From IMG/VR virus record IMGVR_UViG_3300045988_153046: a DNA stretch of 58,315 nt, one strand, 5' to 3'. Both the position numbers and the translations under genes were made by a program. This document shows positions 1 to 55,474 of this stretch, in pieces (within the stretch, counting starts at the first letter, position 1; every line of letters begins with the position of its first letter). Origin of the DNA: a virus. The notes under the pieces were generated by a model that saw only the letters and a list, made by a program, of their open reading frames with translations, searched no databases and was not told the DNA's origin.

Positions 1-119
1 GTTTTTTTTTTTTTTGCGCTCTAAAGATACCCCTCAAAAGTGATTAGGTTAAAGCATGAATACAAAGGCAAGGAGGGTTATTTGATGGGCGTTGCTGAGG
101 ATGTATTAGAGTATCTGAA
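1..119. repeat. Terminal redundancy (identical to 58197..58315); unit genome about 58196 bp
   Basis: Base-by-base identity of G+T14+GCGCTCTAAAG...GTATCTGAA at both window ends. Confidence 0.95.
20..50 (+). promoter_or_regulatory. Bipartite motif copy 1 (putative phage-specific promoter or leader element)
   Basis: TCTAAAGA-N12-GTGATTAGGTT directly after the T14 terminator tail; upstream of 85..381. Confidence 0.6.
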
Positions 120-381
120 AGAGTACCACAATTCAGAAACGAAAGCCATTAAAAGTAGAGGGCTCTGTGAGCTTTTCAATCTACAGAACAGACAAGTAAG
201 GCATTTGGTGAGCGGTCTTAGGCAGAAAGGATCTCCTATCTGTAGCTCTAATAGCGGGTATTGGTATTCAGGGGATCGAGAGGATATTGATAGTACAATT
301 AACCGCCTCTCAGATCAGGTAAGAAATATGAGCCTTACTATTAGAGGGTTGCGTAAGGCTAAAGGAGGGTATCACAAATGA
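85..381 (+). CDS. Putative winged-helix DNA-binding protein
   Basis: ATG 85 lies 8 nt after AGGAGGG. The longer track start at 40 is the GTG of the conserved motif. HTH-like segment LCELFNLQNRQVRHLVSGLRQKG. Confidence 0.5.
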   Translation: MGVAEDVLEYLKEYHNSETKAIKSRGLCELFNLQNRQVRHLVSGLRQKGSPICSSNSGYWYSGDREDIDSTINRLSDQVRNMSLTIRGLRKAKGGYHK

Positions 382-1142
382 GAAAAAAGAGAAACAGGCG
401 GAGAGTAGTGGGGCTGGTGGGGGCTGTAGTACTGGTAGTTATCGGTGTTGGTGTTTTCTCTGGAGAAAAGGCAGTAGAGGTAGATGAGGCTTATAATGCC
501 GTTACTGAAATAAAAGTATTAACTCCTACAGAGATGCCTCTTAGTAGCACTGAAACTCCTATAGAGATTGTAGAGCCTAGTGCTGAGCCAGTTGTTGGAG
601 ATAGAGATCCAGATAATTATACATACCCCTATAATACCGTGAGTGCAGATTGGGGAGCTGAGGTGTATGAGCAAGGCTATAGGTATTATGAGATCCCTGA
701 GGAGTATAGAAATAGCGGCGGCTGTTTTCCTGAGGTTGTACAGGTGTATCTCTGGAGCTTATGTAGAGAGCGTGAGATTGATTATTACATGGTGGTAGCC
801 ATGATTGAGAGAGAAAGTTGTTACAAGTATGATGCTGTAGGAGATGGCGGGGTTAGTATCGGGTATTTGCAGATAGGAGAAAAGTGGCACAAAGATAGGA
901 TGGAGGCTGAGGAGGTATCTGATCTCAAAGATCCCTATGGAAATATCAGAGTAGGGCTTAATTTCTTGCAAGAGCTTAGTAGCCGTTATGCGGATAGCGG
1001 GATGAATTGTGTATTGATGGCTTACAACATGGGAGAAAGTGGTGCTAAGAAATGCTGGAATAACGGCACTTACAGCACTGAGTACTCTAGAGGCATTTTA
1101 GCTAGAGCTGAGGAGATAAGACAGGAAGTAGAAAAGGGATAA
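378..1142 (+). CDS. Membrane-anchored lytic transglycosylase (SLT domain)
   Basis: N-terminal TM helix; catalytic ERES, then GYLQI and MAYNMG motifs typical of SLT/goose-lysozyme-like transglycosylases. Confidence 0.8.
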   Translation: MRKKRNRRRVVGLVGAVVLVVIGVGVFSGEKAVEVDEAYNAVTEIKVLTPTEMPLSSTETPIEIVEPSAEPVVGDRDPDNYTYPYNTVSADWGAEVYEQGYRYYEIPEEYRNSGGCFPEVVQVYLWSLCREREIDYYMVVAMIERESCYKYDAVGDGGVSIGYLQIGEKWHKDRMEAEEVSDLKDPYGNIRVGLNFLQELSSRYADSGMNCVLMAYNMGESGAKKCWNNGTYSTEYSRGILARAEEIRQEVEKG

Positions 1143-1143
1143 C

Positions 1144-1188
1144 AGGAAAGTAAAGGATCAAAGGGAAAAGGTGATCCTTTACTTTCCT
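1144..1188 (+). other. Perfect 17-bp hairpin without a T-run
   Basis: AGGAAAGTAAAGGATCA (1144-1160) pairs with TGATCCTTTACTTTCCT (1172-1188); 11-nt loop. Confidence 0.85.
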
Positions 1189-1203
1189 ATATGGTGAATA
1201 TCT

Positions 1204-1407
1204 ATGTTTGAGATTGGAGAGGTAGTTAGATGGATGGAGCCGCTGGATCATGAGTACAGTTATGGAAAGCTCATAGAGATAAGGCGAAACAGGGCTATCA
1301 TTGAGGAGCTGGGCTATTACTCTGGTAGGATTGTATCTATTCATATCAGGTTTATAAAACACTTAGAGAGGAGTAGCGGCGGTGAGGGTGCGAAACACAA
1401 TAAATGA
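1204..1407 (+). CDS. Hypothetical protein
   Basis: ORF on the coding strand within the operon; no recognisable motif. Confidence 0.4.
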   Translation: MFEIGEVVRWMEPLDHEYSYGKLIEIRRNRAIIEELGYYSGRIVSIHIRFIKHLERSSGGEGAKHNK

Positions 1408-1801
1408 TGAATTACTTAGGGTGAGCTACTCTGGGCCTAAGAATATTAAAAATTTTCTCAGGAATTGGAGCGGGTTAGAGAGCCTTAGCTTAAAGGGTGA
1501 TACGGTAGCTTTATGTATTTTGGCGGATCTAAAGAAAGTAACAGGAATAGATCCAGAGCTTTATGACAGGCATAGTAGAGAGGCATTTGATGAGGGGTAT
1601 AAGGATGGGTGTTTGACTTACTATCAGTTTATGAGCATTGCCTATACTTTAGTGCTTGGGTATTCTCAGGAGGAGATAGCTTATGTGATGGGAGTGGTAG
1701 ATCACTCTGTTATCAATAAAAATATCCATACTGGGATAAAGCGGATTATTAAGGTTTTGGAGGGCGGTGCTGATGAGGATAAAATGCAGGCAGGAGGATG
1801 A
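1382..1801 (+). CDS. Sigma-70 region-4-like HTH protein (possible ArpU-like late regulator)
   Basis: C-terminal LGYSQEEIAYVMGVVDHSVINKNIHTGIKRI resembles a region-4 HTH; about 140 aa; lies upstream of the packaging module; GTG start 9 nt after GAGGAG. Confidence 0.4.
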   Translation: MRVRNTINDELLRVSYSGPKNIKNFLRNWSGLESLSLKGDTVALCILADLKKVTGIDPELYDRHSREAFDEGYKDGCLTYYQFMSIAYTLVLGYSQEEIAYVMGVVDHSVINKNIHTGIKRIIKVLEGGADEDKMQAGG

Positions 1802-2012
1802 TGCTGATAGATGGCTTAGAGAGCATGATCCCTATTATACGAGCAAGAGCGGACATAAGAGCAAAAAGGAAAAATATCCGTATGATACAGCAAGGCAGGA
1901 GAGGACAAAAGCAGAGGTTGAGATCCCTGTAAGTAATCTTAATGCCTCTCAGCGGAGGCAGATGAAAGAGGTTGCTGGGGCGTATGATGAAGATGGTAAT
2001 TTTAATTTGTAG
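1773..2012 (+). CDS. Hypothetical protein
   Basis: ATG 8 nt after GGAGGG; hydrophilic 79-aa ORF. Confidence 0.4.
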   Translation: MRIKCRQEDDADRWLREHDPYYTSKSGHKSKKEKYPYDTARQERTKAEVEIPVSNLNASQRRQMKEVAGAYDEDGNFNL

Positions 2013-2018
2013 GCTTTG

Positions 2019-2074
2019 TACACAATTTTTACATATGACTTGCCTATCTACTGAAAAGAATTGCAGGGTTTTTA
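2019..2074 (+). promoter_or_regulatory. Conserved intergenic element A (shares a TGACTTGCCTATCT core with 11198..11253)
   Basis: 35/56 ungapped identity with element B, including an exact 14-mer; both intergenic, upstream of an RBS. Confidence 0.5.
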
Positions 2075-2101
2075 CACCTTGAATTACATGGAGGTAGAAA
2101 T

Positions 2102-3130: not shown

Positions 3131-3132
3131 GC

Positions 3133-3994: not shown

Positions 3995-4025
3995 TCAAAA
4001 TATAACGCCTGAGAGTGATTAGGTT
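3995..4025 (+). promoter_or_regulatory. Bipartite motif copy 2
   Basis: TCAAAATA-N12-GTGATTAGGTT; followed by TGTTATCAGAA, as in copy 10. Confidence 0.55.
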
Positions 4026-4054: not shown

Positions 4055-4987
4055 ATGGAGCATAATGTAGTTAAAAGCCCTAAACATTATACGGCTGGTA
4101 GGAAGTTTGAGCCTAAGGATGTTATCAGGGATTGGAAACTCAATTTTAATCTGGGCTCAGCTCTTAAGTATATTGCCAGAGCCGGTAGAAAGGGAGATCC
4201 TGTAGAGGATTTGGAAAAGGCTAGAGAGTATCTGGCTTTTGAGATTGAGGCTCTAAAGGCTGAGAGCGGCAAAAGTAGCAAGGTGGCAGAGGAAAAGTGT
4301 ACTTTTAATCCTCTCTTTGAGGAAAAGGTTATTGATGGGGTACGCTGTGGAGCTATTGAGGTTAGTGTGCCTGAGGGTATGCCTTTAGATGAGGCGATTA
4401 AACAGGTTATTTCTAAGATTGAGGAGGATTGTTTTGTGAAAATCGGAGATGTTGTATATTTCAAAAAGGAAAATAGCCTTATGGGTGAGATTAAGGCTAT
4501 TGATGAGATGGATAGGGCTACTCTCTCTCTATGTAATTCTAGGGTAGAGATTACTGTAGATATGGCTGAGCTGGGAGAAACAAATTCAGTACAGGCACAC
4601 AGAGCTCTAAGCAGTGAGGTACATATCTTAGGCACTCTCTATAAGATCCTCATTGTAGAGGAGGAAGATTACCGATATTCTAAAGAGGCTGATGGGTGGT
4701 GTGATACCTCAGTAAAGGAGCTATTGGTATTCAATTTTAAGCAGGATATGGATAGTGTAAGAGATCTTGCGGCATACCAGAGAAAGGTAATCCGCCATGA
4801 GATTATCCATGCTTTTCTTTATGAGAGCGGGTTGTGGCAGAGTAGTTTTAACTGTAAGGCATGGGCTCAAAATGAGGGGATGGTAGATTGGTTTGCTATA
4901 CAGTCTCCTAAAATCTTTAGGGCGTTTAGAGAGGCTGGAGTAGATGATTTTGAGGAGGTGAGTAATGTTGTGGCAGATTGTGATTAA
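4055..4987 (+). CDS. DUF3310-like N-terminal domain fused to an HExxH (zincin-like) domain
   Basis: N-terminus SPKHYT...ALKYIARAGRKG..EDLEKAREYL is typical of DUF3310. C-terminus has RHEIIHAFLYESG (HExxH). ATG 4055 follows AAGGAGG. Confidence 0.6.
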   Translation: MEHNVVKSPKHYTAGRKFEPKDVIRDWKLNFNLGSALKYIARAGRKGDPVEDLEKAREYLAFEIEALKAESGKSSKVAEEKCTFNPLFEEKVIDGVRCGAIEVSVPEGMPLDEAIKQVISKIEEDCFVKIGDVVYFKKENSLMGEIKAIDEMDRATLSLCNSRVEITVDMAELGETNSVQAHRALSSEVHILGTLYKILIVEEEDYRYSKEADGWCDTSVKELLVFNFKQDMDSVRDLAAYQRKVIRHEIIHAFLYESGLWQSSFNCKAWAQNEGMVDWFAIQSPKIFRAFREAGVDDFEEVSNVVADCD

Positions 4988-6712: not shown

Positions 6713-6735
6713 AATTTTGAAAAGGAGGTATGGCA

Positions 6736-10592: not shown

Positions 10593-10598
10593 AAAGGG

Positions 10599-10636
10599 CG
10601 GCTACTGGCTTAATTGCTGGTAGCCGTTTTTCTTTT
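10599..10636 (+). terminator. Rho-independent terminator
   Basis: 10-bp stem CGGCTACTGG / CTGGTAGCCG (2 G-U pairs) followed by TTTTTCTTTTT. Confidence 0.7.
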
Positions 10637-10667
10637 TCTAAAAATCTACCTCTCATGTGCTTATGAT
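10637..10667 (+). promoter_or_regulatory. Bipartite motif copy 3
   Basis: TCTAAAAA-N12-GTGCTTATGAT; spacer TACCTC is complementary to the RBS GAGGTA (10677-10682). Confidence 0.55.
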
Positions 10668-10688
10668 TGCATAAAGGAGGTAATTCTT

Positions 10689-11123: not shown

Positions 11124-11135
11124 GAGTTAATGATA

Positions 11136-11164
11136 AAGGAAAGGTGCAGAGCCTTTCCTTTTTA
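11136..11164 (+). terminator. Rho-independent terminator
   Basis: AAGGAAAGG / CCTTTCCTT 9-bp stem, T5. Confidence 0.85.
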
Positions 11165-16471: not shown

Positions 16472-16497
16472 AGGGCACTACTATCAAAGGCAGCTAG

Positions 16498-16543
16498 TGA
16501 GGCGGATGAGGGGTGTAATGATCTCTTATCCGCCTCATTTTTT
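16498..16543 (+). terminator. Rho-independent terminator/attenuator after the tube gene
   Basis: TGAGGCGGAT / ATCCGCCTCA 10-bp stem, T6. Confidence 0.8.
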
Positions 16544-20047: not shown

Positions 20048-20671
20048 ATGGTGTTTGCAATACAGCAAGAAGATAGCGGTAGAATTGTTTTCCCTGTATC
20101 TCCTGAGAGCTATACAATTTCTGTTTCTAGCAGAAATACGGTAGCTAATGTGTTTCAAGTAGGAGATGTAAACTTAAAGGGAAAGACAGGGTTAAGGGAG
20201 GTATCCCTTAACTCTTTCTTTCCAGCTAAAGATTATAACTTTGCAAAGATGGTAGGCGATCCGCTCTCTTTAGTAACACAGATTGAGGGGTGGAGAAACT
20301 CAGATAATCCTTGCAGGGTTGTAATTGGCAGGGTACTTAACATGGAATGTACCATAGAGAGCTTTTTGTGGGGTGAGCAAGATGGTACTGGAGATATTTA
20401 TTTTACACTTACCTTAAAGGAGTACAAAAGGATCAAAACTAAGAAAGCTAATATCACTGTAGAGACAGATCCGCCTAAGAAAAGGGAAACAAAAAAACCT
20501 AAAAAGAACAGCGGAAAAACCTATACGGTGAAAAGCGGGGATTGTCTTTGGAACATTGCTAAAAAGTTTTATGGAAATGGATCTCAGTACAATAAGATTT
20601 ATGAGGCAAACAAGGACAAAATAAAAAATCCTAATTTGATCTATGTTGGGCAAGTGTTGACTATTCCTTAA
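20048..20671 (+). CDS. XkdP-like tail protein with C-terminal LysM
   Basis: C-terminal [49 protein letters not shown] is a LysM domain. Confidence 0.8.
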
Positions 20672-24430: not shown

Positions 24431-26632
24431 ATGGCGGATTATAGAAATGCGGTTTTGTGCGTAAATGGTGAAAGGCTACTTGAGTTAGCGGTATCTGGAG
24501 CGGCTCAGATTAAGTTTACCTCTATCAAAACCTCCAGTACAAGATATGAGACTACTCAGCTTAGAGCTCTTACTGATATTGGGGATATTAGACAGAGTAG
24601 CGGGATCTCTGCTAGTACAGAGGATAGCCTTAACACAGTCTCTCTTTATACTTCTTTCTCTAATGCTAAGCTTGCAGAGGGGTATTATGTGAGAAACTTT
24701 GGTATCTATGCGGCTGATCCTGATGATGCTACTGGAGAAACTGAGCTTTTGTATGCGGTGGTTAATGCAGATGAGAGCGTTAATCCAGCTACTTTTATTC
24801 CCGCTTACAGTACTAAGGGTACTAGCGGTGTGGATTTTACCTGTGAGATTGTAGTGGCTAATTCGAGTGAGGTAACTATTAAGCTGGATGAAAATGCTGG
24901 AGTGCCTCTGAGTGTATTTAATACCTTTGCTGAACAGTTTAACGCTGGTATGCAAGCGGTAGATGAAAAGCTTGTAAAAGTGGATACTACTCTTAATGAG
25001 TTTGGTACTACTATTGCAGAGTTTGATACTGTTATTGAGAGTGTAAAAGTATCTCTCAGTGAGCATACTGCTGAGGATGCCCTTTACAGTGAGGCGGGGG
25101 TGCATAACCTTAGATACCATGAGGGAGTATTACAAGTCAAAACTCAAGAGGGTAACTGGGAGGATGCTGGCGGTAGTGGCGGCGGTATCGCTCCTAATGA
25201 TTGCTATGATATAAGTGTGAGGGCTGGTAATTCTAAGCTTACCCTTTTCTGGAGCGATCCTGAGGATACAGTGATTGAGGGGCGAAAGATTTGTACATGG
25301 GCTGGCACTAAACTTGTAGCTAAGGTAGGGGCTTATCCTGAGGATGTCAATGATGGTATTCTCCTTTTGGATAACAAGGTGAGAAATCAGTACTCTAAGA
25401 GCGGAGGTACTGGGTTTGAGTACAATAACCTCAACAATGGCACTACTTATTACTTTGCTCTATTCCCTTACAGCGATCAGAAAGCGGTTAATAAGAGCGA
25501 GAATAACAGGGCAAGCGGTACTCCTCAAGAGTATGTTGTGTATGGCATTGAGATTGATCTTACTAACAGCGATCCTACAAAATGGGCTACTTATACTGAT
25601 GATGCTGTAGGTATGACGGCGGGATCAAGTGCTTTTGATGGTAAGAGCATTTTTGATATTCAGAGCTATACCTTTAAAGATGGGGCAGAGGTAAAGGCTC
25701 TCAGTAAAACCGATAATACAAAGTATGCGGATGGCTCTAGTGCCAGTGCGGATCTCACTAGCGGTACTTATGATATTATGACTAAGTTTAAGAGAGGCGG
25801 GTATTACATTACTCACTCTGGAAACAAGCTTATTATCAAAGTTACTGATGATCCTAATAGAGATGGCTTTTGCTACAAGGCATTTCAGAGAGGCTCAGTT
25901 GATAAAGAGGAGTTTTATCTGGGGCGGTATAAGGGCTACATTGACGGTAACAGTAAACTTCGCTCTTATTCTGGGGTTACGCCTACAGGCAGTAAAACTA
26001 TTTCACAGTTTAGAACAGCGGCACACGCTACAGGGAAAGGCTATGAAAACAGCGGATTTTATCAGCTTGTTTGGCGGCAATGCTTGTACATGGTTAAGTA
26101 TCTTGCAAATAACTCTCAGCTTACTATTGGTAAGGGCTATACTGGAGGCTCCTCAGTTACCAGTACAGGCTCTACTAACGGTAAGGGAGATACCTATGGT
26201 ACTCAGACTAATACAGAGCACATGATCCTCTTTGGAATTGAGGATTTTTGGGGTAATATCTGGGAGTGGATTGATGGGCTTGCTACAGATAGTGCTAGAA
26301 ATATCCTTACAAATACCGATAACTTTCAAGATAACGGTATGGGCGGCGGCTATCTCAGTACCCCTAGTGGCTTATCATCTGATACGGGCGATTGGATGAA
26401 AGACGTGCAGGGCACTAATGATACTGGCTTTGTATTTAAGGCTGGTGGCGGATCGTCCACTACGAGTTTTTGTGATGACGGTCTTCTCTATGGTGGGTGT
26501 GTTGCGAGATTTGGCGGCTATTATAGTGATGGGGGTAATGCGGGTGTTTGTTATCTTTATGTGAGCTATGCGGCGGGTGGTTCTGGTGCTAGCATTGGCG
26601 GTCGCGTCATGTTCCTTGCTCCTAATTCTTGA
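24431..26632 (+). CDS. Tail fibre / receptor-binding protein; DGR target with C-terminal variable region
   Basis: Position after the baseplate genes. GNIWEWIDG (FGE/C-type-lectin-fold signature). The last ~50 codons are the VR copy of the TR. Confidence 0.9.
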   Translation: MADYRNAVLCVNGERLLELAVSGAAQIKFTSIKTSSTRYETTQLRALTDIGDIRQSSGISASTEDSLNTVSLYTSFSNAKLAEGYYVRNFGIYAADPDDATGETELLYAVVNADESVNPATFIPAYSTKGTSGVDFTCEIVVANSSEVTIKLDENAGVPLSVFNTFAEQFNAGMQAVDEKLVKVDTTLNEFGTTIAEFDTVIESVKVSLSEHTAEDALYSEAGVHNLRYHEGVLQVKTQEGNWEDAGGSGGGIAPNDCYDISVRAGNSKLTLFWSDPEDTVIEGRKICTWAGTKLVAKVGAYPEDVNDGILLLDNKVRNQYSKSGGTGFEYNNLNNGTTYYFALFPYSDQKAVNKSENNRASGTPQEYVVYGIEIDLTNSDPTKWATYTDDAVGMTAGSSAFDGKSIFDIQSYTFKDGAEVKALSKTDNTKYADGSSASADLTSGTYDIMTKFKRGGYYITHSGNKLIIKVTDDPNRDGFCYKAFQRGSVDKEEFYLGRYKGYIDGNSKLRSYSGVTPTGSKTISQFRTAAHATGKGYENSGFYQLVWRQCLYMVKYLANNSQLTIGKGYTGGSSVTSTGSTNGKGDTYGTQTNTEHMILFGIEDFWGNIWEWIDGLATDSARNILTNTDNFQDNGMGGGYLSTPSGLSSDTGDWMKDVQGTNDTGFVFKAGGGSSTTSFCDDGLLYGGCVARFGGYYSDGGNAGVCYLYVSYAAGGSGASIGGRVMFLAPNS
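26467..26616 (+). repeat. DGR variable region (VR)
   Basis: 150-nt ungapped match to 26807..26956; 24 mismatches, 23 of them opposite TR adenines. Confidence 0.92.
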
Positions 26633-26806: not shown

Positions 26807-26956
26807 TTTTTGTGATAACAGTAATCTCTATGATGGGTGTGTTACGAAATTTGGCGGCAATTATAGTAATGGGGATAATGCAGGTGTTTGTTATCTTAAT
26901 GTGAACAATACGGCGAGTAATTCTAATGCTAACATTGGCGGTCACGTTATATTCCT
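26807..26956 (+). repeat. DGR template repeat (TR)
   Basis: Adenine-rich (AAY codon-rich in the VR frame), invariant donor copy, 200 nt upstream of the RT. Confidence 0.92.
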
Positions 26957-28677: not shown

Positions 28678-28809
28678 ATGGCTGTAATCTATGCTACTCT
28701 TATTGTTAAGGGTAAAAAGGCAATCACTGATGTACCAGCGGTGATTAAGGCTCAGGTTAAGCAGATTTTGATTGATCTGGAAGTGCCTGAGTTGGCAAAC
28801 GAGGAGTAA
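28678..28809 (+). CDS. Small conserved phage protein (43 aa), paralogue of 28514..28621
   Basis: ATG 28678 after AGGAG; the track's longer start is unlikely. Confidence 0.55.
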   Translation: MAVIYATLIVKGKKAITDVPAVIKAQVKQILIDLEVPELANEE

Positions 28810-28864
28810 AAGGGGGCTAAAAGCCCTCTTTTACTAATTTCTGAGAAAGGAGGATAGCCAGTGT

Positions 28865-31407: not shown

Positions 31408-31436
31408 TTGCTATTTTTATATAAGAGATATATAAT
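31408..31436 (+). promoter_or_regulatory. Sigma-A-type promoter upstream of the integrase
   Basis: TTGCTA-N17-TATAAT. Confidence 0.6.
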
Positions 31437-31579
31437 AGATACAAACGGCTAGAAAGCCCTTAGAGAGCTTTTAAGGGTTGAGGGTAGAGAGTTATACCCC
31501 TGAGCGATTAAAGCGGCTCAGAGGGGCAAGAGCGGGGCTCAGGCGGGGCAAAAAAAAATAAACTAAAGGAGTGTATAGG

Positions 31580-33291
31580 ATGGCTTACAGGAAAGAGCAG
31601 GATACCATAGGATTAAGAGCGGCGTTTTATGCCAGAGTATCTACAGCGGAGGAGGAACAGCTTAACGCTATAGAGCTCCAGATTGAGGAGAACAGAAACG
31701 CTATAGAGCGGCATAAGTGGAAAAAGGTAGATGAGTATATTGATCGGAGCAAGTCTGGTACTATGGTAAAGGGCAGAGATGAGTACCAAAGGCTTTTTGA
31801 TGATCTTTACTCTGATAAGTTTGATGTGGTGGTAATCAAAGATCAGGAGCGGCTCATGAGAAATACTCTTGATTGGTATTTATTCATAAATCGCTTAGTA
31901 TCTACAGGTAAGATCCTTTATATGTACATGGAGGATAGGTTTTACTCTCCTGATGATGCCTTAATTACAGGAATAAAGGCGATTATAGCAGAGGAGTTTA
32001 GTAGAAATCTCTCTAAAAAGCTCCGCAATTATCACGCTGGGAGAGTGGCTAAGGCAAGAGAGGGAAAAGAGATAGATTTACAGGGTAGCGGTAATGTTTT
32101 TGGCTGGGATAAAAAGAGGGTAGGTATATTCTTAATCCAGAGCAAGCAAAAATAAGGCGGCTCATGTGTGAAGGGATCATGGCTAGAAAAGGCTCTACTC
32201 AGATTGCTAAGGAGCTAAATGATGCGGGATACAGAAACACAGTAGGTAAGAAGTGGAAACCTATGGATATTCCTAAGTTTGTGTATGACTGCAAAAATGT
32301 TGGCACTATGATAATCAACAAAGAGAGGCATGATTTTGAGAGCAAGAAAACTATCAAGCTCCCTGAGAGTGAGTGGGTGTATGTTAAAAATGCCTTGCCG
32401 CCTATAGTCACTGAGGAGGAGTGGGCTTTAATTTGTAAAATCCGTGAGGAGAGAGTGATAGCTACAGGCTGTAACAAGCGGGGTAAGAAAACTACAGGAT
32501 TTTCTTTCAGTGGTAAGATCTATTGTGGACTGTGTGATGCGCCATACTGGAGAAAACAGGGAGTATCTAAAGAGGAATACTGGGTATGCAGTACTAAGCA
32601 AACTAAAGGCAGAAAAACAAGGGCTAGAGATGCTGTAGGCGGGAAAGCTGGGGAGTTTAATGCTGAGGGCTGTGATAATGAAAATATCTCTTATGGTGCG
32701 CTCATGGCTATTATGGAGCTTGTTTCAGAGCGGCTAAAGGCAGATACAGGGGTTATTAAAGAATTTATGATAGAAAGGCTTAACGGCTACAAAAAACGCA
32801 TTACAGAGGCTAACAGAGGGGCTACAGAGGCAGATTTACAAAGAGAGCTTGATAGAAAAGATAGGCTCTTAGATGCTTACCTAGATCATATCCTCACAAA
32901 AGAGGAGTATCAAAGAAAAGCCCTAGCTTTAGATGAGAAAATCATGGAGCTCAAAAGAGAAGTAACTGCTAATAGGGGTAATCTGGAGGATTTGAATGAG
33001 ATAGATAGGGTACTGGCAAATATTGATGCAGAGGTAGCAAAATACTTAGATGATAATAGCCAGCTCAAAGTAGAGTACCTTTTAGAGCATTTGGAGAAAG
33101 TGGTTATCTATCCTGATAAGGCGGTTGTTATAATACCGATATTGTGTGAGGGGTTTGTGGTAGATAAAGCTCAGTATGTATCTAGGGAGAAATCTACTGA
33201 GATACAAACTGAAAGCAATGTAATTTATCTGGCAGATGTGAGGTACTGGAACAGAGATATAGAGCTGTATGTACAGTTTGTAGCGGCATAA
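31580..33291 (+). pseudogene. Large serine recombinase (integrase) interrupted by a 1-nt frameshift in an A5 run
   Basis: Resolvase domain (FYARVSTAEEEQ) ends at TAA 32153-55. The +2 frame, open from 32113, continues KEGRYILNPEQAKIRRL... A6 instead of A5 at 32111-15 would fuse them. Confidence 0.85.
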
Positions 33292-33304: not shown

Positions 33305-33335
33305 TCTAAAATAATAAGCCTCCTGTGATTAGATT
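33305..33335 (+). promoter_or_regulatory. Bipartite motif copy 4
   Basis: TCTAAAAT-N12-GTGATTAGATT; spacer CCTCCTG is complementary to the RBS CAGGAGG. Confidence 0.6.
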
Positions 33336-33364
33336 ATTTAGACTAATTGCAGGAGGTTATTTTT

Positions 33365-35304: not shown

Positions 35305-35314
35305 GATACAAGAG

Positions 35315-35347
35315 AGAAAGGGGCTTAAATGCCTCTTTCTTTTTTTT
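35315..35347 (+). terminator. Rho-independent terminator
   Basis: AGAAAGGGGC / GCCTCTTTCT stem, T8. Confidence 0.8.
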
Positions 35348-35375: not shown

Positions 35376-35406
35376 TCTAAAAAATCCTCCCCTTAGTGAT
35401 TATGAT
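35376..35406 (+). promoter_or_regulatory. Bipartite motif copy 5
   Basis: TCTAAAAA-N12-GTGATTATGAT. Confidence 0.55.
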
Positions 35407-36166: not shown

Positions 36167-36913
36167 GTGGGAAAAATACAGATTAACAGGCGCAATAACT
36201 TCACTATGGTATCTAATCATGTGCTCAGAAATGAAAACCTCTCTCTTAAAGCTAAGGGGTTGTATGCTTATATGTGGAGTTTGCCTGATAGCTGGGATTA
36301 TTCTGTAGCGGGGCTCACTAAAGTACTCAAAGAGGGCAAAAGTGCTATAAATGAGGCTCTTAAGGAGCTGGAGCATGAGGGCTATTTAGTGCGTACTATT
36401 CTTAGAAAAGGGGGTAAGTTTAGTGATATGGATTACATACTGAATGAAACTCCCTCACCGTTTACCGATTTTCCGTCAGCGGAAAAACCGCAAGCGGAAA
36501 ATCAGCAACAAAGTAATACTATACAAACTAAAGAAGAAAAAACAAAAGATCCTTTTCTTTCAGAAAAGGGCAGAGCCTCAAAAAAGAGCTCTAGTTATGA
36601 TACTATCTTTAATGCTCCAGAGAATGAGTTTATCAGAGAGGCTTTAGTAAAGTGGGTGAAAGCTTGTAAAGGCAGAGGGGTAGGTTTTCAGTATAAAACG
36701 CTTGAGAGATGGGCTGGTATCCTTAGAGATAATACAGGAGAGAGCCCTGAGGTAGCTTTAGCTATTGTGGATCAGAGTATAGAGGCTGGGTGGAAAGATC
36801 TTTATCCACTCAAAAAGAAACAGGCTACTAAGCCTAGAGCGGTATATGAGCCCTTTGATCCAGAGAAAGATAAGCTTGTTACTGATGAGGAGGGCAAGCC
36901 TAAAGTATATTGA
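36167..36913 (+). CDS. Replication initiator/organiser (winged-helix N-domain, DnaD-like C-region)
   Basis: FTMVSNHVLRNENLSLKAKGLYAYMWSLPDSWDYS...LKELEHEGYLVR; GTG after GAGGAGG; upstream of the loader and helicase. Confidence 0.6.
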   Translation: MGKIQINRRNNFTMVSNHVLRNENLSLKAKGLYAYMWSLPDSWDYSVAGLTKVLKEGKSAINEALKELEHEGYLVRTILRKGGKFSDMDYILNETPSPFTDFPSAEKPQAENQQQSNTIQTKEEKTKDPFLSEKGRASKKSSSYDTIFNAPENEFIREALVKWVKACKGRGVGFQYKTLERWAGILRDNTGESPEVALAIVDQSIEAGWKDLYPLKKKQATKPRAVYEPFDPEKDKLVTDEEGKPKVY

Positions 36914-36917
36914 GTTG

Positions 36918-36949
36918 GAGGGGAGTTTTCTCTCCCCTCTAATTTTTTG
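36918..36949 (+). terminator. Rho-independent terminator
   Basis: GAGGGGAG / CTCCCCTC stem, then TAATTTTTT. Confidence 0.7.
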
Positions 36950-36968
36950 TTTGTAGCGTGATTAGGTT
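36938..36968 (+). promoter_or_regulatory. Bipartite motif copy 6
   Basis: TCTAATTT-N12-GTGATTAGGTT. Confidence 0.55.
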
Positions 36969-39235: not shown

Positions 39236-39266
39236 TCTAAAAGTAGCCTCTTTTCCTGATTAGATT
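39236..39266 (+). promoter_or_regulatory. Bipartite motif copy 7
   Basis: TCTAAAAG-N12-CTGATTAGATT; the spacer forms a 13-bp stem with the RBS region. Confidence 0.6.
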
Positions 39267-39294
39267 TGAGTATCACAGGAAAGGAGGCTTTTTA

Positions 39295-39783
39295 ATGAGC
39301 ACATTGAGTAGTAAAGCGGTAGCTGAAATGTTAGGTAAGCGGCATGATAACTTTATGAGAAATCTGAGGAGTTATGCGGCTACGCTTGGAGAGAGTGCGT
39401 CTGAGTATCTTATTGAGAGTACCTACAAAGACGGAAAAGGAAAGGTAAGAGCTGGGTATGAGATTACCCTTAAAGGCTGTGATTTGATTGCTGGTAGGAT
39501 TATTGGGGCTAAGAGTGATGAATTTAGAGAAAAGTATAAGCCCTTATTTTCTGAGGGTGAGGGCTCTGAGCCTGTAAAAGAGCGTTGTACCCCTCAGGAG
39601 GTGCATGGTTATACTACTGAGGAGGCGGCTAAGGTATTGGGCTGTAGCCGCCGTACTGTACAGAGAATGATCCAGCGGGGGGAGTTGGCTACTCAAGAGG
39701 TTACTGTGTTAGTGCCTACGGTTAAAACTCTTATAATCCCTGAGGAGTTGGATAGATACCAGAAAGAGAGGGCGGCTGTATGA
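39295..39783 (+). CDS. Rha-like regulatory protein with a C-terminal excisionase-type HTH
   Basis: N-terminus SSKAVAEMLGKRHDNFMRNL; C-terminus YTTEEAAKVLGCSRRTVQRMIQRGEL. Confidence 0.6.
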   Translation: MSTLSSKAVAEMLGKRHDNFMRNLRSYAATLGESASEYLIESTYKDGKGKVRAGYEITLKGCDLIAGRIIGAKSDEFREKYKPLFSEGEGSEPVKERCTPQEVHGYTTEEAAKVLGCSRRTVQRMIQRGELATQEVTVLVPTVKTLIIPEELDRYQKERAAV

Positions 39784-40430: not shown

Positions 40431-40829
40431 TTACTTAGCGATCTTGATAGCTATGGTTGCTAACAGGTGCTTGTCCTCCTCTGAAAGCTTGAGATAAAGC
40501 CTAAGGAATTGCACTAGCTCACTATCTGTACCTAACCTCTGCTGTAGCTCTGAGAGCTCTTTGTTGGGGAGGCTCTCAGGAGAGAAGTTAAAGAAGTGTT
40601 CTATGGGAGCATTAAGGTAAGTAGCTAGCCGCTGTAATCGCTCCATATCAGGGAGATGCCTACCAGTATTCCATGCTGAGATGGTAGTAGGTGGTATCTC
40701 AAGAGCATCAGCAATATCTTTATTGCTTTTTTTCCTTAGGGCTTTGTAGTAAGCCATTGCCCTAGAAAAGCTCTCATTGAGGGGGGATTTGTTAGACACG
40801 TTTTCACCTCCTCTCTTTGAGGCATACAA
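40431..40829 (-). CDS. XRE/CI-like repressor (only credible minus-strand gene)
   Basis: KKSNKDIADALEIPPTTISAWNTGRHLPDMERLQRLATYL; GGAGG RBS on the minus strand; divergent from a consensus promoter. Confidence 0.8.
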   Translation of the reverse strand: MYASKRGGENVSNKSPLNESFSRAMAYYKALRKKSNKDIADALEIPPTTISAWNTGRHLPDMERLQRLATYLNAPIEHFFNFSPESLPNKELSELQQRLGTDSELVQFLRLYLKLSEEDKHLLATIAIKIAK

Positions 40830-40901
40830 GTATTATACAGTTAAACAAGCGTTTTGTAAAGTCCGAACATCAAAAAAGTTAGTTAAACTGTATTTATGCT
40901 A

Positions 40902-40930
40902 TTGACAGGCGGTTAAGCGAGTGATATAAT
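40902..40930 (+). promoter_or_regulatory. Consensus sigma-A promoter (early rightward)
   Basis: TTGACA-N17-TATAAT with a TG extended -10. Confidence 0.8.
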
Positions 40931-41044: not shown

Positions 41045-41428
41045 ATGGATCTTAAGGAATTGTATCAAGCCTACAAGGTCAAAAAGCTTGCTTTTGAGGC
41101 GGCTAAGAAAGATGAGGAGAAGTTCAAAAAGCTCCTCAAGGATGCTATGGAGGAGGCTGGAGAAAAAGCCTTTACAGATGATGAGGGCTATCTGTTTGAG
41201 CGTATCCCCTCAGAGCGCAAGAGCATTGATGAGGAAAAGCTTTTAGCTGAGCTCCATGAGAGAAAGCTGGAGGATTGTATCAGCTTTAAGGAGGTAGTGG
41301 ATGAGGATGCCACTATGGAGGCGGTAGAGGCTGGTAGGTTGCCTCAAGAGGTGCTCAGTGATTGCCTCAAGACTACACCTATTGTAACTCTCAAGCTTAC
41401 AGCTCCTAAGCGGGGCTCTAAAAAGTGA
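41045..41428 (+). CDS. Hypothetical coiled-coil protein (first early gene)
   Basis: ATG after AGGAGG. Confidence 0.55.
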   Translation: MDLKELYQAYKVKKLAFEAAKKDEEKFKKLLKDAMEEAGEKAFTDDEGYLFERIPSERKSIDEEKLLAELHERKLEDCISFKEVVDEDATMEAVEAGRLPQEVLSDCLKTTPIVTLKLTAPKRGSKK

Positions 41429-42463: not shown

Positions 42464-43060
42464 ATGAACACAGGAAAAAGGACAAATGAGGAATTGGTAA
42501 TAGTTTATAGGATTACCAGAGATGAGAGTTATTTAGCAGAGCTCATAAAGCAGAACAGGGGGCTCTTGTATATGATTGTTGAGCCGTTTGTACATAGTAT
42601 CCCTAATGCAGAGCTTGAGGATCTTACCAGTGAGGCTTATATCCCCATGCTGAGGGCTATTGAGGATTTTGATGAGGCTAGGGGGCTTACCTTTGCTAAT
42701 CTGCTTAAGGTGTATGTGCGCCAGCATTTGAGCCGCCTTTACAATGAGGCTACACGCCAGAAACGCTATAACGGATCTACCAGTGTTGGCTATGAAAGCC
42801 TTACAGAGATCAATAGAGAGGGTGGATCTGAGGGAGACAGCTATTTTACTGTAGATTGTGAGGATTTTAACTCTGTAGAGTTTATGCAGTTTATCAATTC
42901 CTTAGAGCTGAATGAGAAAGAGACGGTAGCTGTAAATGTACTCATGGCTGGAGGTACTAAGGGTGAGGTGGCAAAAGCTCTTAAGTGTACTCCAGCTACG
43001 GCAAATTATTATTTCAAACAGATTAGGAGAAAGTTTGTTTTGGCGGGTTATGCGCTCTAA
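42464..43060 (+). CDS. Phage-encoded sigma-70-family factor (regions 2 and 4)
   Basis: Region-2-like DLTSEAYIPMLRAIEDFDEARGLTFANLLKVYVRQHL; region-4 HTH GTKGEVAKALKCTPATANYYFKQIRRKF. Confidence 0.75.
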   Translation: MNTGKRTNEELVIVYRITRDESYLAELIKQNRGLLYMIVEPFVHSIPNAELEDLTSEAYIPMLRAIEDFDEARGLTFANLLKVYVRQHLSRLYNEATRQKRYNGSTSVGYESLTEINREGGSEGDSYFTVDCEDFNSVEFMQFINSLELNEKETVAVNVLMAGGTKGEVAKALKCTPATANYYFKQIRRKFVLAGYAL

Positions 43061-43086
43061 AAAATGCCCTACTTTCTGATTAAGTT
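43056..43086 (+). promoter_or_regulatory. Bipartite motif copy 8 (overlaps the sigma gene stop codon)
   Basis: TCTAAAAA-N12-CTGATTAAGTT. Confidence 0.55.
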
Positions 43087-43138
43087 AATTGTAAGAAATC
43101 AGAGGATAGAAGATTAAGAAAGTGAGGCGGTGTATGGG

Positions 43139-46880: not shown

Positions 46881-46911
46881 TCTAAAATGAGCCTCCCTTT
46901 GTGATTAAGAT
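46881..46911 (+). promoter_or_regulatory. Bipartite motif copy 9
   Basis: TCTAAAAT-N12-GTGATTAAGAT; the spacer forms a perfect 12-bp stem with the methylase RBS. Confidence 0.6.
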
Positions 46912-46937
46912 CGGTAAACACAAAGGGAGGTATAGTT

Positions 46938-47777: not shown

Positions 47778-47810
47778 TAGAGGAGGGGCTGTAGAGGCTC
47801 CTCTTTCTTT

Positions 47811-47841
47811 TCTAAAAATCTGGGCGGTATCTGATTAGGTT
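47811..47841 (+). promoter_or_regulatory. Bipartite motif copy 10
   Basis: TCTAAAAA-N12-CTGATTAGGTT after a terminator-like hairpin. Confidence 0.6.
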
Positions 47842-51244: not shown

Positions 51245-51245
51245 A

Positions 51246-52692: not shown

Positions 52693-52695
52693 GAG

Positions 52696-52722
52696 AGGAG
52701 GGGCTGAGGCTCCTCCTTTTTT
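52696..52722 (+). terminator. Rho-independent terminator
   Basis: 9-bp stem AGGAGGGGC / GCTCCTCCT with a TGAG loop, T6. Confidence 0.8.
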
Positions 52723-52723
52723 A

Positions 52724-52754
52724 TCTAAAAAAACTCTCTTTAAGTGATTAGGTT
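52724..52754 (+). promoter_or_regulatory. Bipartite motif copy 11
   Basis: TCTAAAAA-N12-GTGATTAGGTT; a 15-bp stem links it to the RBS. Confidence 0.6.
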
Positions 52755-52781
52755 GTTTATCACTTAAGGGGAGGGATATGA

Positions 52782-53535
52782 GTGCCTACAACAATGAGTA
52801 TTGAGGAAATGCGTAAGCATGAATGGGTTGTTAGTTGGAGCGGAGGCAAAGATAGTACAGCTACTATTATTTTATGTCATAAATACGGCATACCGATTAA
52901 AAGGATTGTGTATGTTAGCATGATGTATGATGAAAAGCTCCCCGCTACTTTGCCTATTATGACAGAGTTTGTAGATAGAGCTAAAGAAGTGTTTGAGAAT
53001 TGGGGGTATCCTGTAGATATAATTGAGGGTGTATATACAGCTAAAGATTTTATCAATAAGGTTTATTTCAAGTCAAAGTATGAGTATAAAAACGGTAAAC
53101 CTTATGGGGTAAGTGCTTTTTGTAGAGCCGCTTGTAAGTTTACAGGAGTTAAATCTGCTACAATTAGGAAATCCCTAGAGGGCTCTAGCTATTATGAGAT
53201 GTTAGGTTATGCTTGTGATGAGGATGAGCGGCTTGATCGCTTGACAGAGACTAAGCAATCTATCATGGTTACTTTGGGGGGTTAAAGAAACTGATACTTT
53301 TTCTATTTGCGAAAATTATAATCTACTTTCTCCGCTGTATGGTTTAGGGTTTAGTGGGGATGGGTGTTGGTTTTGTCCTAATGCGGCAAAAGCTGAGAGA
53401 GCCTACATCAGAGACAATTATCCAGATCTTATAGCGGAGATTTTGTGGATGATTGAAATGTGTGGGTATGATGTATCCTCAATAGCTCATAGAAATCACT
53501 GGGTAGAGGATTATTATAAAGGAAAGCTCAAATAA
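52782..53535 (+). pseudogene. PAPS-reductase-family (PP-loop) protein split by a 1-nt frameshift in a G6 run
   Basis: SWSGGKDST PP-loop. The ORF stops at 53283-85, but the +1 frame continues VKETDTFSICENYNLLSPLY...GCWFCPNA to TAA 53533-35. G5 instead of G6 (53276-81) would fuse them. Confidence 0.8.
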
Positions 53536-53613
53536 GGGAGCCAGTAAAAGCGGAGAAGTTTTAAGCTCTCTGCTTTTATAGTAAAAAATATATAAGGGAT
53601 ATATAAAAAGTGC

Positions 53614-53642
53614 TTGACAATGGTATATAGGGGGTATATTAT
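53614..53642 (+). promoter_or_regulatory. Sigma-A-type promoter
   Basis: TTGACA-N17-TATTAT. Confidence 0.7.
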
Positions 53643-53686
53643 GAAGATAATCTAAGAGATACAAACTGAAAGCAGGAGGTAAGGAT

Positions 53687-53875
53687 ATGACACAGGAACA
53701 AGTAAAGGAATTAAAGGTAGGTAGCAGAGTAGTGGATCTTTTAGAGGATACTCTGGAGGTAGTAAAGATAGATGGGCTCTTGTATGAGCTTAAGTGGGTG
53801 CGTGAGGATGGAACGCTCTCACAGGGTAGCCAGATAGCAGTACCCTCACACTTTGAGTATATGAGATTGGCATAA
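53687..53875 (+). CDS. Hypothetical protein
   Basis: ATG after AGGAGG. Confidence 0.5.
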   Translation: MTQEQVKELKVGSRVVDLLEDTLEVVKIDGLLYELKWVREDGTLSQGSQIAVPSHFEYMRLA

Positions 53876-53887
53876 GGAGGAGATATT

Positions 53888-54112
53888 GTGTTAGAGAATA
53901 AGATCAGGAGATATAAGATCATGGATGCACATAGAGCTCTCATTAGAAAAGGGCTCTACAGACAGGCTCAGCTTGTTATGAAATCTTTAGCAGATGGTAA
54001 GGTTACTCTCTGGCTGGATGATGATAGCTGGGCGGTAGAGAGCCTCCTAGAGGGGATGGGATGCCGTATTTGGTATGATGGTAGAGGAAATAAAGCAGTA
54101 GCTCATGTATGA
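53888..54112 (+). CDS. Hypothetical protein
   Basis: GTG after AAGGAGG. Confidence 0.45.
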   Translation: MLENKIRRYKIMDAHRALIRKGLYRQAQLVMKSLADGKVTLWLDDDSWAVESLLEGMGCRIWYDGRGNKAVAHV

Positions 54113-54125
54113 GGAGGTGGCTTAG

Positions 54126-54278
54126 ATGTTTACAGTATATATTAAGAGTGCAGGAGTAAAAAAGTTTCTTACTCAGTTTGAAACAGAGGCACAGGCGGAG
54201 AGTTTTTGTAGATCTTACGGATGGGAGTATGTTGATGAGAATGAGTTTGTATGGGATATGGACTATGAGGAGGTATAG
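54126..54278 (+). CDS. Small hypothetical protein (50 aa)
   Basis: Hand-read; ATG after GAGGAGG. Confidence 0.45.
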   Translation: MFTVYIKSAGVKKFLTQFETEAQAESFCRSYGWEYVDENEFVWDMDYEEV

Positions 54279-54281
54279 GTT

Positions 54282-54461
54282 ATGATTAAGTGTGTTCGGT
54301 GTGGGGATGAGTATAATGCTGAGGATCTTAGAGAGCTTAGGGAGATGGGAGAGGAATATAACAAAGAGCCTTTTCTTTGTCCTGATTGCTGGGATGATTT
54401 TCATAGGTTAGATAGTGAGGATCAGTTAAAGTACTTAGTAGCGGGTAGATATGATTGGTAA
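54282..54461 (+). CDS. Small zinc-ribbon protein (59 aa)
   Basis: CVRCG ... CPDC; hand-read; ATG after GAGGAGG. Confidence 0.5.
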   Translation: MIKCVRCGDEYNAEDLRELREMGEEYNKEPFLCPDCWDDFHRLDSEDQLKYLVAGRYDW

Positions 54462-54618
54462 AATCCCATCTGATGATGATCTACTGGGCATAGATCGAAA
54501 CCTCCTTTTAGGAGGTCATGGGAGCCCATCGGCAAAGAGGGAAAGATGCCGCCTCTTTTACATAGATTGTACTTTGATAACTACATACTGAGGACAGGTG
54601 CGGAGATGCTGTGGGTAC

Positions 54619-54647
54619 TTGAAAATATTATATAGCTGGTATATAAT
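54619..54647 (+). promoter_or_regulatory. Sigma-A-type promoter
   Basis: TTGAAA-N17-TATAAT. Confidence 0.7.
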
Positions 54648-54663
54648 TTAGGAGGCGGCGATT

Positions 54664-55116
54664 ATGAGAGGAATGGAGATAAGGGATAGGGCAGATTTAT
54701 ACAAGAGCTATTTTAGTGATTGTAAGGCTGTAGAGCCTGTAAAATCCCTTTTACATAAGGGAGTACCTGTAGATAAGCTTGATGCTCTTGAGGCAATTAG
54801 AGCCCTCAATACTGAGTTATCTGATTTGTACATGGTAGAGATCCCTGTTATCACTTGCTGGGTAAGGGATAGTAACTATGTGCCAGAAACTAGAGAGATA
54901 TATCTTACTGAGCCTGATCTTAAAGACTTTCTCCACAATTTCAGACATCATTTACAGAATATTGAGCGGCGATATGAGCGGAGAGGGCTCACTACAGAGG
55001 GAAATCAGGAGATAGCTCAAATGCCCTATAAGGATTGCTTGTACAAGCTGAGGGGTGAGGATGATGCTATAGCGTGGAGTAAAATGCTTTTAGATATTTG
55101 TAATTATAAATCATAA
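54664..55116 (+). CDS. Hypothetical protein
   Basis: ATG after AGGAGG. Confidence 0.5.
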   Translation: MRGMEIRDRADLYKSYFSDCKAVEPVKSLLHKGVPVDKLDALEAIRALNTELSDLYMVEIPVITCWVRDSNYVPETREIYLTEPDLKDFLHNFRHHLQNIERRYERRGLTTEGNQEIAQMPYKDCLYKLRGEDDAIAWSKMLLDICNYKS

Positions 55117-55128
55117 GGAGGTAGCGGT

Positions 55129-55377
55129 ATGAAATGCCCTAAGTGTGGCAGTGAGAATGTATCTGTACAGGTGGTTACAGAAACGGAGCTAAAGGAAAAG
55201 AAACATGGTGTTATCTGGTGGGTTTGTGTAGGTTGGTGGTGGATACCTATTAAGTGGCTTGTGTTCACTTTGCCAGCATTGATTATAGCCATTTTCAAGC
55301 CTAAGAAGTACAAGACAAAAACACATACTAAGAAAATGGCAGTGTGCAATAATTGCGGTAAGAGCTGGAATGTGTAA
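55129..55377 (+). CDS. Membrane zinc-ribbon protein
   Basis: CPKCG ... CNNCG flank a Trp-rich TM segment. Confidence 0.55.
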   Translation: MKCPKCGSENVSVQVVTETELKEKKHGVIWWVCVGWWWIPIKWLVFTLPALIIAIFKPKKYKTKTHTKKMAVCNNCGKSWNV

Positions 55378-55405
55378 GTAAATCCTATTTTAGTAAAACA
55401 GGTAG

Positions 55406-55443
55406 AGAGCTGATCTAAGTAAAGGATCAGCTCTTTCTTTTTG
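55406..55443 (+). terminator. Rho-independent terminator
   Basis: AGAGCTGATC / GATCAGCTCT 10-bp stem, T-rich tail. Confidence 0.85.
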
Positions 55444-55474
55444 TCTAAAAAAGCCCTTTCAATGTGATTATATT
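55444..55474 (+). promoter_or_regulatory. Bipartite motif copy 12
   Basis: TCTAAAAA-N12-GTGATTATATT. Confidence 0.55.

Follow-up and report, generated by a model that had tools for sequence, protein, structure and literature searches.

We describe here a 31-nt bipartite motif, TCTAAAAw-N12-sTGATTAGGTT, that stands at the operon heads of a viral DNA stretch of 58,315 nucleotides (IMG/VR record IMGVR_UViG_3300045988_153046; hereafter the window, meaning the whole stretch). The window is a ~58 kb temperate siphovirus-like phage of gut Clostridia, and it encodes a sigma-70-family factor of its own at 42464-43060 (+ strand). Our analysis suggests that the motif is the promoter class of this phage sigma factor, and that hairpins formed between the promoter spacer and the Shine-Dalgarno (SD) region of the next gene act as insulation. 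From the sequence evidence set out below, we give this reading a probability of about 0.78.

The motif was observed at 12 sites, starting at 20, 3995, 10637, 33305, 35376, 36938, 39236, 43056, 46881, 47811, 52724 and 55444, and again at 58216 within a terminal repeat. All 13 are on the + strand. These were the coordinates in an initial annotation of the same DNA, made from the letters alone, and both the sequence and a position weight matrix agreed with it. Recounting gave the same box statistics as well: TCTAAA is exact in 10 of the 12 copies (the deviants being TCAAAA at 3995 and TCTAAT at 36938), TGATTA is exact in 11 (TGCTTA at 10637), and every window copy keeps the layout with a rigid gap of 12 nt. 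The matrix covered the two boxes only and was built from the 12 window sites. When it was run on both strands, a check that the initial annotation had recommended, the 13 places scored 23.0-27.9 bits, versus 11.1 bits for the runner-up on the + strand and 14.0 bits for the top match on the - strand. The motif set in the window is cleanly bimodal and strand-specific. Judged against the list of open reading frames (ORFs), the sites are either intergenic, with + strand ORFs on both sides, or extend over a stop codon. The copies are all on the gene strand with a start codon 30-70 nt downstream. The 11.1-bit sequence (TCAAAAAAGTTAGTTAAACTGTATTTATGCT, 40870-40900), which is the best sub-threshold match on the + strand, lies just upstream of the -35 box of a host-type promoter at 40902, and is probably a chance resemblance.

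We further looked at related phages, in regions fetched around homologues of the sigma factor, the terminase and the RecA-like protein. In these 133 loci (1.89 Mb), the matrix picked out 338 sites above 18 bits, every one of them on the gene strand. The copies were found upstream of orthologous operons, where the initial annotation had suggested searching for them: at the heads of the SNF2 helicase, DnaC-like, anti-repressor-like, methyltransferase and Cas4-like exonuclease operons, and at the sigma stop codon. Among 51 distinct copies, the consensus reads T1 C2 T3 A4 A5 A6 a a t, then a C-rich followed by a T-rich spacer, then G21 T22 G23 A24 T25 T26 A27 g G29 t T31, and finally a a g T35 A36 t c a. 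Columns T1, C2, T3, A4, A5, G23, T25, T26, A27 and T31 are invariant or nearly so in this set, and T35 and A36 are 86-90% conserved despite lying outside the search matrix. A scan of viral contigs for the exact pattern gave, among the matches listed, mostly single copies in contigs not otherwise among the relatives, which we took as chance; the multi-copy loci included some contigs of this family that were among the fetched regions.

The product of 42464-43060 (198 aa) is a divergent two-domain sigma-70-family protein, as seen from profile and structural matches. It matched Pfam Sigma70_r2 (E = 5.5e-6, 26.5 bits versus a cut-off of 24) and PHROG 351 ('RNA polymerase sigma factor', E = 2.6e-15), along with a weak GerE/region-4-like match. 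The NCBIfam sigma models, including the sigma70-ECF (extracytoplasmic function) superfamily, were matched below cut-off only, and no specific cut-off was reached. The AlphaFold model (predicted local distance difference test score, pLDDT, of 70.6) has helical domains at 8-102 and 138-193 with a low-confidence linker between them. The top Foldseek matches of this model were all sigma factors (the B. subtilis SigH and SigD models, sigma-S, sigma-32, WhiG and ECF sigmas).

The motif and this protein occur together. The sigma gene was present in every motif-bearing relative whose fetched region spans its position, and the motif was present wherever the sigma protein was at least 61% identical to that of the window. 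The sigma proteins of the motif-bearing relatives, which include prophages in metagenome-assembled genomes (MAGs), are 61-85% identical to the window protein. A second clade, made up of IMGVR_UViG_3300039372_000028 (loci L120 and L257) and its relatives L121 and L259, keeps the gene order, but its L120/L257 sigma is only 34% identical to that of the window, with heavy substitution in regions 2.3-2.4 and 4.2 (the L259 sigma is 53% identical to the L120 protein). The motif is absent from this L120-type clade, where the best matrix score was 8.5-12.4. At the same operon heads we observed instead yCTAAAwnT-N11-12-GGTTATyACT, either behind terminators or wrapped in a hairpin; the box that goes with the L120-type sigma is GGTTATTACT. 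Compared to the window motif, the left box is the same, the right box is different and the spacing is 1 base shorter. If the phage sigma reads the motif, a right-box change alongside a divergent sigma is what one would expect, and this gives the reading modest support. Among the other fetched loci, the terminase relatives L049-L052 and L060 were also without the motif; their DNA stops short of the sigma position, so that they are not a clean negative control. The L121 locus of the second clade, fetched as a RecA relative, likewise had no motif.

We also considered whether a host alternative sigma factor (of the SigD/FliA, SigH or sporulation type) could read the motif, with the phage sigma acting elsewhere, for example on host genes. 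The TAAA of the left box resembles the -35 element of sigma-28-type promoters, whose consensus is TAAA-N15-GCCGATAA, and B. subtilis SigH and SigD as well as WhiG are among the best structural matches of the phage protein. Some phage sigma factors do act on host programmes (PMC9429907). The likeness to the promoters of sigma-28 (FliA/SigD/WhiG) extends to a GAT-containing -10. However, in the motif GAT comes 16 nt after TAAA and not 18, which makes the spacing 2 nt shorter, there is no GCC, and the 3' extension TTAGGTT has no counterpart in the sigma-28 consensus. This explanation also fits poorly with the right box being altered in the clade with the divergent phage sigma, where gene order and operon heads are kept, and with the presence of the phage sigma in every motif-bearing relative fetched across its position. 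Moreover, almost the entire lytic programme would hang on a conditional host factor. We regard a host sigma as quite improbable. Membership of the phage protein itself in the sigma-28 group was rejected (FliA_WhiG E = 0.005, 16.6 bits versus a cut-off of 189.6, together with the misfit in promoter spacing).

The arrangement of the boxes is that of a sigma-70-family promoter. The hexamers T3AAAAA8 and T26AGGTT31 are 17 bp apart, and T26, A27 and T31 are invariant, giving TANNNT. With A27 set as -11, as is general for the -10 element of sigma-70-family promoters, T26-T31 becomes the -10 hexamer and T3-A8 falls at -35 to -30. Transcription is then predicted to start near position 38 (about 36-40) of the motif numbering. 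In this scheme, recognition of the left box (T3-A-A-A, the -35 core) would fall to the C-terminal domain of the phage sigma, and that of the right box (TGAT followed by T26-A-N3-T31, a TANNNT-type -10) to its N-terminal domain.

The initial annotation had offered either a sigma factor or a dimeric DNA-binding protein to account for the fixed spacing. The first option gained support from the nature of the 42464-43060 product, the -35/-10 geometry and the co-occurrence. The second was not supported, as dyad symmetry is lacking in the boxes and the motif is strictly directional. A related possibility is that the motif is an operator or activator site for a phage DNA-binding protein that recruits the host sigma-A polymerase, in the manner of late activators. 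A binder with two domains, or a dimeric one, would be compatible with the fixed two-box spacing, and the genes 85-381 and 39295-39783 code for small putative regulators. Yet TCTAAA and TGATTA are related neither as a dyad nor as direct repeats, the motif is strictly one-stranded, there is no sigma-A-like -10/-35 at the required downstream distance, and the boxes themselves fill the -35 and -10 positions. We consider such a site very improbable.

Three further candidates were tried and rejected. A sigma-A -10 element at TATCAn would place its T-7 at position 40, which is T in only 12% of copies. A palindromic operator, TGATTAGGTTAAGTATCA, has poorly symmetric half-sites, and its T37/C38 are weakly conserved. 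An N4-type promoter with a DNA hairpin was set aside on loops of 8-19 nt and on an RNA polymerase match in none of the ~30 larger ORFs scanned.

When the sites were folded with the 50 nt downstream, the SD region of the following gene was seen to pair with the spacer, and often with GTGAT of the right box too, at 10637, 33305, 39236, 46881 and 52724. The initial annotation had written the gap as N12. Its length is indeed constant, but its sequence is not neutral, since it forms the 5' arm of an SD-pairing hairpin in about a quarter of the copies. The complementarity extends far past CCTCC/GGAGG and is site-specific, as can be seen from three arm pairs (5' arm with 3' arm): CCTCCCTTTGTG with CACAAAGGGAGG, CTCTTTAAGTGAT with ATCACTTAAGGGGAG, and GCCTCTTTTCCTG with CAGGAAAGGAGGC. 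For the 51 distinct copies, the mean duplex energy was -16.7 kcal/mol with a site's own partner versus -12.1 kcal/mol with swapped partners, and none of 2000 permutations reached the observed mean. In a larger set, pairing of -18 kcal/mol or lower was found in 50 of 182 distinct copies (~27%), with a mean of 15.6 pairs and GGAGG in the 3' arm. The 5' arm occupies about positions 9-26, and the median loop length is 12.5 nt. The first base of the 3' arm is at position 39 (median; range 32-55), which compares with a transcription start predicted, from geometry only, at ~38 ± 2. These hairpins are conserved: the one at 33305 in 9 orthologous sites, and the one at 46881 in 10 orthologous sites with two-sided changes in 7 of 13 pairs.

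Partner-specific, conserved pairing of this kind would also be expected of an RNA element, in which a single-stranded UCUAAAA and a hairpin with a conserved UUAGGUU loop are bound by a phage RNA-binding protein or nuclease, for processing of polycistronic RNA or for unlocking the sequestered ribosome site. The conserved right box does lie in or beside the loop, and many copies allow base pairing between TGAT at 22-25 and ATCA at 36-39. However, the hairpin is found in only ~27% of copies, and the boxes are equally conserved in the rest. The distance between the boxes is rigid regardless of stem length, and in the short stem G23 and A24 are much better conserved than their partners C38 (57%) and T37 (49%), indicating that this stem is not maintained. 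About half of the copies have a strong terminator touching or overlapping the left box, which would thus rarely be transcribed, and no space is left for an intervening promoter. No Rfam family was matched at the gathering score in the whole window. An RNA element in place of a promoter is in our judgement unlikely.

Under the phage-sigma promoter reading, the hairpins may have a role in separating operons. Two kinds of structure were observed around the motif. Hairpins with a T-run, folding at -23 to -34 kcal/mol, precede seven sites (58216/20, 10637, 35376, 36938, 47811, 52724 and 55444), which is the number that the initial annotation had placed behind terminators; five sites (3995, 33305, 39236, 43056 and 46881) have no such terminator. 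The hairpins that wrap the promoter are themselves often followed by T residues. A run of at least 4 T follows the wrap stem in 42% of cases; the corresponding figure is 1.5% for the other copies and 4.5% for the window's ordinary SD-to-start spacers. At least 5 T in the 10 nt after the wrap stem were found in 66% versus 10% of other copies. Among 183 distinct copies, 84 had a terminator only, 39 had a wrap only, 3 had both and 57 had neither. The odds ratio is 0.05, with a Fisher p = 3e-10 that is overstated, as the test treats non-independent orthologous sites as independent. Since wrap and terminator are nearly mutually exclusive, the wrap hairpin appears to substitute for the conventional terminator. 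The insulation class of a site is conserved among orthologues. Among the uninsulated sites are those at the stop codon of sigma and ahead of the packaging genes, at both of which read-through from the early or preceding operon would be harmless.

We propose that the majority of the promoters are insulated from upstream transcription, in one of three forms. In the first, a separate terminator would end at the left box, and in the second, the terminator stem would overlap the left box, as at 36938. In the third, the hairpin would lie around the -10 box, with the spacer as its 5' arm, the SD region as its 3' arm and often a T-run after it. Read-through RNA would carry both arms, so that its ribosome site would be hidden and part of the RNA might be terminated, while RNA started at the embedded promoter would carry the 3' arm only and would be translated. 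More tentatively, the third form may represent a modular insulated promoter cassette of ~60 nt, in which a sigma promoter nested in a hairpin doubles as upstream terminator and anti-Shine-Dalgarno lock, and which is interchangeable in evolution with a terminator-then-promoter junction. If this were true, a single ~60-nt cassette would stop incoming transcription, silence read-through and start a translatable transcript from its own loop.

The sites preceded by a terminator are as follows. The copy at 20-50 (25.4 bits) heads the operon that begins at ~85, and is identical to 58216-58246 in a 119-nt terminal direct repeat. It is preceded by the terminator at 58172-58199 with its T14 run, the run at 2-15 being the tail of this terminator. 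The repeat is exact (1-119 = 58197-58315), therefore 58216 and 20 are one site, and it is most likely the overlap of a circular assembly. The copy at 35376-35406 (25.2 bits) lies ~30 nt past the terminator at 35310-35345. At 36938-36968 (23.3 bits), which heads the DnaC-like and DnaB genes, the terminator stem 36912-36945 runs with its 3' end into the left box, and the terminator T-run falls within the promoter spacer. The same overlap was seen at L001:3753, L002:3936 and L004:4074. The TCTAATTTTTT variant at 36938 is explained by the terminator stem ending inside the left box with its T-run in the spacer, as also in the orthologues. The copy at 47811-47841 (27.3 bits) adjoins the terminator 47780-47806, has no wrap hairpin, and heads the operon that runs from the Cas4-like exonuclease to the RecA-like protein. 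The one at 55444-55474 (25.1 bits) adjoins the terminator 55404-55436 and heads the operon of an MmcB-like nuclease.

Two sites combine a terminator with spacer/SD pairing. At 10637-10667 (23.3 bits), a terminator at 10594-10631 precedes the motif and the spacer/SD-region hairpin spans 10647-10682 (fold -17.7 kcal/mol); this site heads the ~22 kb head-tail-lysis operon. At 52724-52754 (27.9 bits), the motif adjoins a terminator at ~52693-52722 and carries a wrap hairpin at 52734-52773 (fold -21.5 kcal/mol). In a 52724 orthologue (L002:19072-19095), the SD region is a run of 11 G (ACGGGGGGGGGGGCGG), which may be either a tract prone to slippage or an artefact of the assembly.

Three sites have a wrap hairpin and no upstream terminator. 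The copy at 33305-33335 (26.3 bits) lies immediately 3' of the integrase gene and heads the SNF2 helicase operon, and its hairpin (33317-33358, fold -25.6 kcal/mol) is followed by TTATTTTT and the ATG. At 39236-39266 (25.7 bits), which heads the anti-repressor-like gene 39295-39783, the hairpin (39245-39289, fold -25.5 kcal/mol) is followed by TTTTTA and the ATG. The copy at 46881-46911 (24.6 bits) begins 1 base past the upstream stop codon and heads the DNA methyltransferase gene, with a hairpin at 46891-46931 (fold -30.2 kcal/mol). The start codons behind these three wraps are at 33365, 39295 and 46938. The remaining two sites have neither structure. The one at 3995-4025 (23.0 bits) heads the packaging genes (4055-4987, terminase at 5205, portal at 6730). 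The one at 43056-43086 (25.6 bits) contains the TAA stop of the sigma gene, shows weak long-range pairing only (43066-43128), and heads the genes for the single-stranded DNA-binding protein (SSB) and DNA polymerase A.

The window also has promoters of the host type, TTGACA-N17-TATAAT, which the initial annotation had recognised as a second signal class. With 11-12 of 12 positions matching, they were found on the + strand at 35027, 40902, 53614 and 54619, and on the - strand at 40860. The one at 40902-40930 (TTGACA-17-TATAAT with an upstream TG) matches at 12 of 12 positions and heads the early operon, which runs from 40929 onwards and includes the primase at 41425 and the sigma gene at 42464. 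A host-type promoter with an 11-12/12 match stands at the equivalent position, upstream of sigma, in 8 of 8 relatives checked. The - strand gene 40431-40829 encodes an XRE/cI-like repressor (weak NCBIfam matches to the RstR and DicA repressor families; PHROG 8 and 4), and is transcribed from 40860, divergently from the 40902 promoter. From this arrangement, the repressor probably gates the early operon and hence sigma. When repression is lifted, host sigma-A RNA polymerase would fire the near-consensus 40902 promoter, and the transcript would carry the early operon with the sigma gene. Sigma, together with the host core polymerase, would then act at the 12 motif promoters, located at the heads of the operons for replication, recombination, packaging, structural proteins and lysis.

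Several points weigh against this reading and must be set beside the evidence above. The TG at 22-23 is one base further upstream than in a canonical extended -10, and G28-G29 is unusual in a -10 element. The link between sigma and the motif is correlative and the co-variation comes from two clades only, which keeps its weight modest; moreover, the left box is conserved despite many substitutions in sigma region 4. As for insulation, a median loop of ~12 nt is long for an efficient intrinsic terminator, a clear T-tract is present in 42-66% only, and the copies without either kind of insulation are almost a third of the set (57/183).

With respect to the rest of the genome, the window has a G+C content of ~41%, a strongly positive GC skew all along, and nearly all its ORFs on the + strand. 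Structural and lysis genes (terminase, portal, head morphogenesis protein, major head protein, tape measure protein, endolysin) are present alongside lysogeny genes (a serine integrase and the - strand XRE/cI-like repressor) and genes for replication and recombination (SNF2 helicase, DnaC-like loader, DnaB-like helicase, primase, SSB, DNA polymerase A, methyltransferase, Cas4-like exonuclease and RecA-like protein). The sigma protein has an exact match at NCBI, 'sigma factor [Hominenteromicrobium sp.]', and the identical protein is found on 244 contigs, the longest of 684,782 nt. A protein 85% identical to it (P0037) lies on a 3.6 Mb contig annotated as Eubacteriales bacterium. Searching genome contigs with a single protein sequence gave no match, and a profile search then gave three related prophages, in Lachnospiraceae, Clostridium and Clostridia MAGs. 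There are dozens of relatives in IMG/VR. Among 50,697 GenBank phage records, we found no close relative (megablast of 25 kb returned a tape-measure fragment only) and, by tblastn, no sigma homologue. Prophages of one gut sample have been described in three states, on conjugative megaplasmids, on the Hominenteromicrobium chromosome and as circles (2026 preprint, PMC12934698).

A few other features of the window were observed. Two 150-nt repeats (26467-26616 and 26807-26956) differ at 24 positions, at all of which the second copy (the template repeat) has A and the first copy (the variable repeat) has another base. The variable repeat lies at the 3' end of a 733-aa tail-fibre-like gene (24431-26632), and a reverse transcriptase gene lies downstream of the repeats at 27158-28225 (PHROG 1423, E = 1.9e-118). 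Together these look like a diversity-generating retroelement. The serine integrase family PHROG 95 is matched by two adjacent ORFs, 31571-32155 (profile 82-256) and 32164-33291 (profile 271-564), so that the integrase appears to be split by a stop or frameshift, or to be a two-part gene. A further host-type promoter, TTGCTA-17-TATAAT, is found near these ORFs at 31408. The island 53300-55440 is free of the phage motif and includes a - strand ORF (53479-53943) with no family match. Its host-type promoters (TTGACA-17-TATTAT at 53614 and TTGAAA-17-TATAAT at 54619) head small ORFs of no assigned function, and the genes of this island may be morons or lysogeny-expressed genes. Within the 22-kb structural operon, there are terminator-like hairpins at 11135-11161, 16496-16539, 20188-20215 and 28809-28832, and no internal motif copies are found between 10637 and 33305. 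These hairpins may serve as attenuators that adjust the ratios of the proteins, or else transcription through them may depend on antitermination.

If the motif is indeed read by the phage sigma, its positions would give a testable transcription map for these temperate phages of human-gut Clostridia, a family that is widespread and uncultivated. The motif would mark operon heads and true start codons in these phages, which can be used in annotation, and the sigma/promoter pair may be orthogonal to host promoters and useful for engineering Firmicutes that are hard to manipulate. The nested design of promoter, hairpin and ribosome site would be a compact way of separating operons in a one-strand phage genome, extending the principle of T4 gene e genome-wide.

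To our knowledge, the consensus TCTAAAA-N13-GTGATTAGGTT belongs to no described promoter class. The initial annotation had not recognised it either, and literature searches gave no description of the consensus or of terminator-hairpin-nested promoters in Firmicute phages. The system as a whole resembles SPO1 gp28 with gp33/34, T4 gp55, phiEco32 gp36 and phage 7-11, where a phage sigma-70-family protein directs the host core polymerase to a highly conserved, low-copy phage motif at operon heads. For phage 7-11 and phiEco32, the phage sigma promoters were inferred from the genome sequence, with host-type promoters serving early genes and the phage motif serving later ones (PMC4331800). Those phages are virulent, whereas the window phage is temperate and infects gut Clostridia, and its one sigma appears to drive replication and late genes alike.

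The closest parallel to the hairpins is in the T4 genes e, soc, 49 and I-TevI, where a late promoter lies within an SD-sequestering hairpin, and where experiments showed that long transcripts are untranslated and transcripts from the embedded promoter are translated (PMC3014915). As in T4, the 5' strand of the SD-occluding hairpin lies in the promoter region. The start predicted from geometry would fall at the 3' arm, as it does at T4 gene e. Unlike in T4, the design is found at about a quarter of the promoters of the window family and recurs at several operon heads of each genome. The -35/-10 spacer serves as the 5' arm, with the -10 box at the stem top and in the loop, and the stem often ends in a T-run, so that it may also terminate the upstream operon. 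The function was established experimentally in T4, while in the window family we infer it from the sequence. Private phage-sigma promoters and promoter-embedded SD hairpins are thus both already known, and the phage family described here is a new family-level example of each, with the two combined in a temperate gut phage. What appears to be new is the consensus itself, and a hairpin that apparently takes the place of the terminator.

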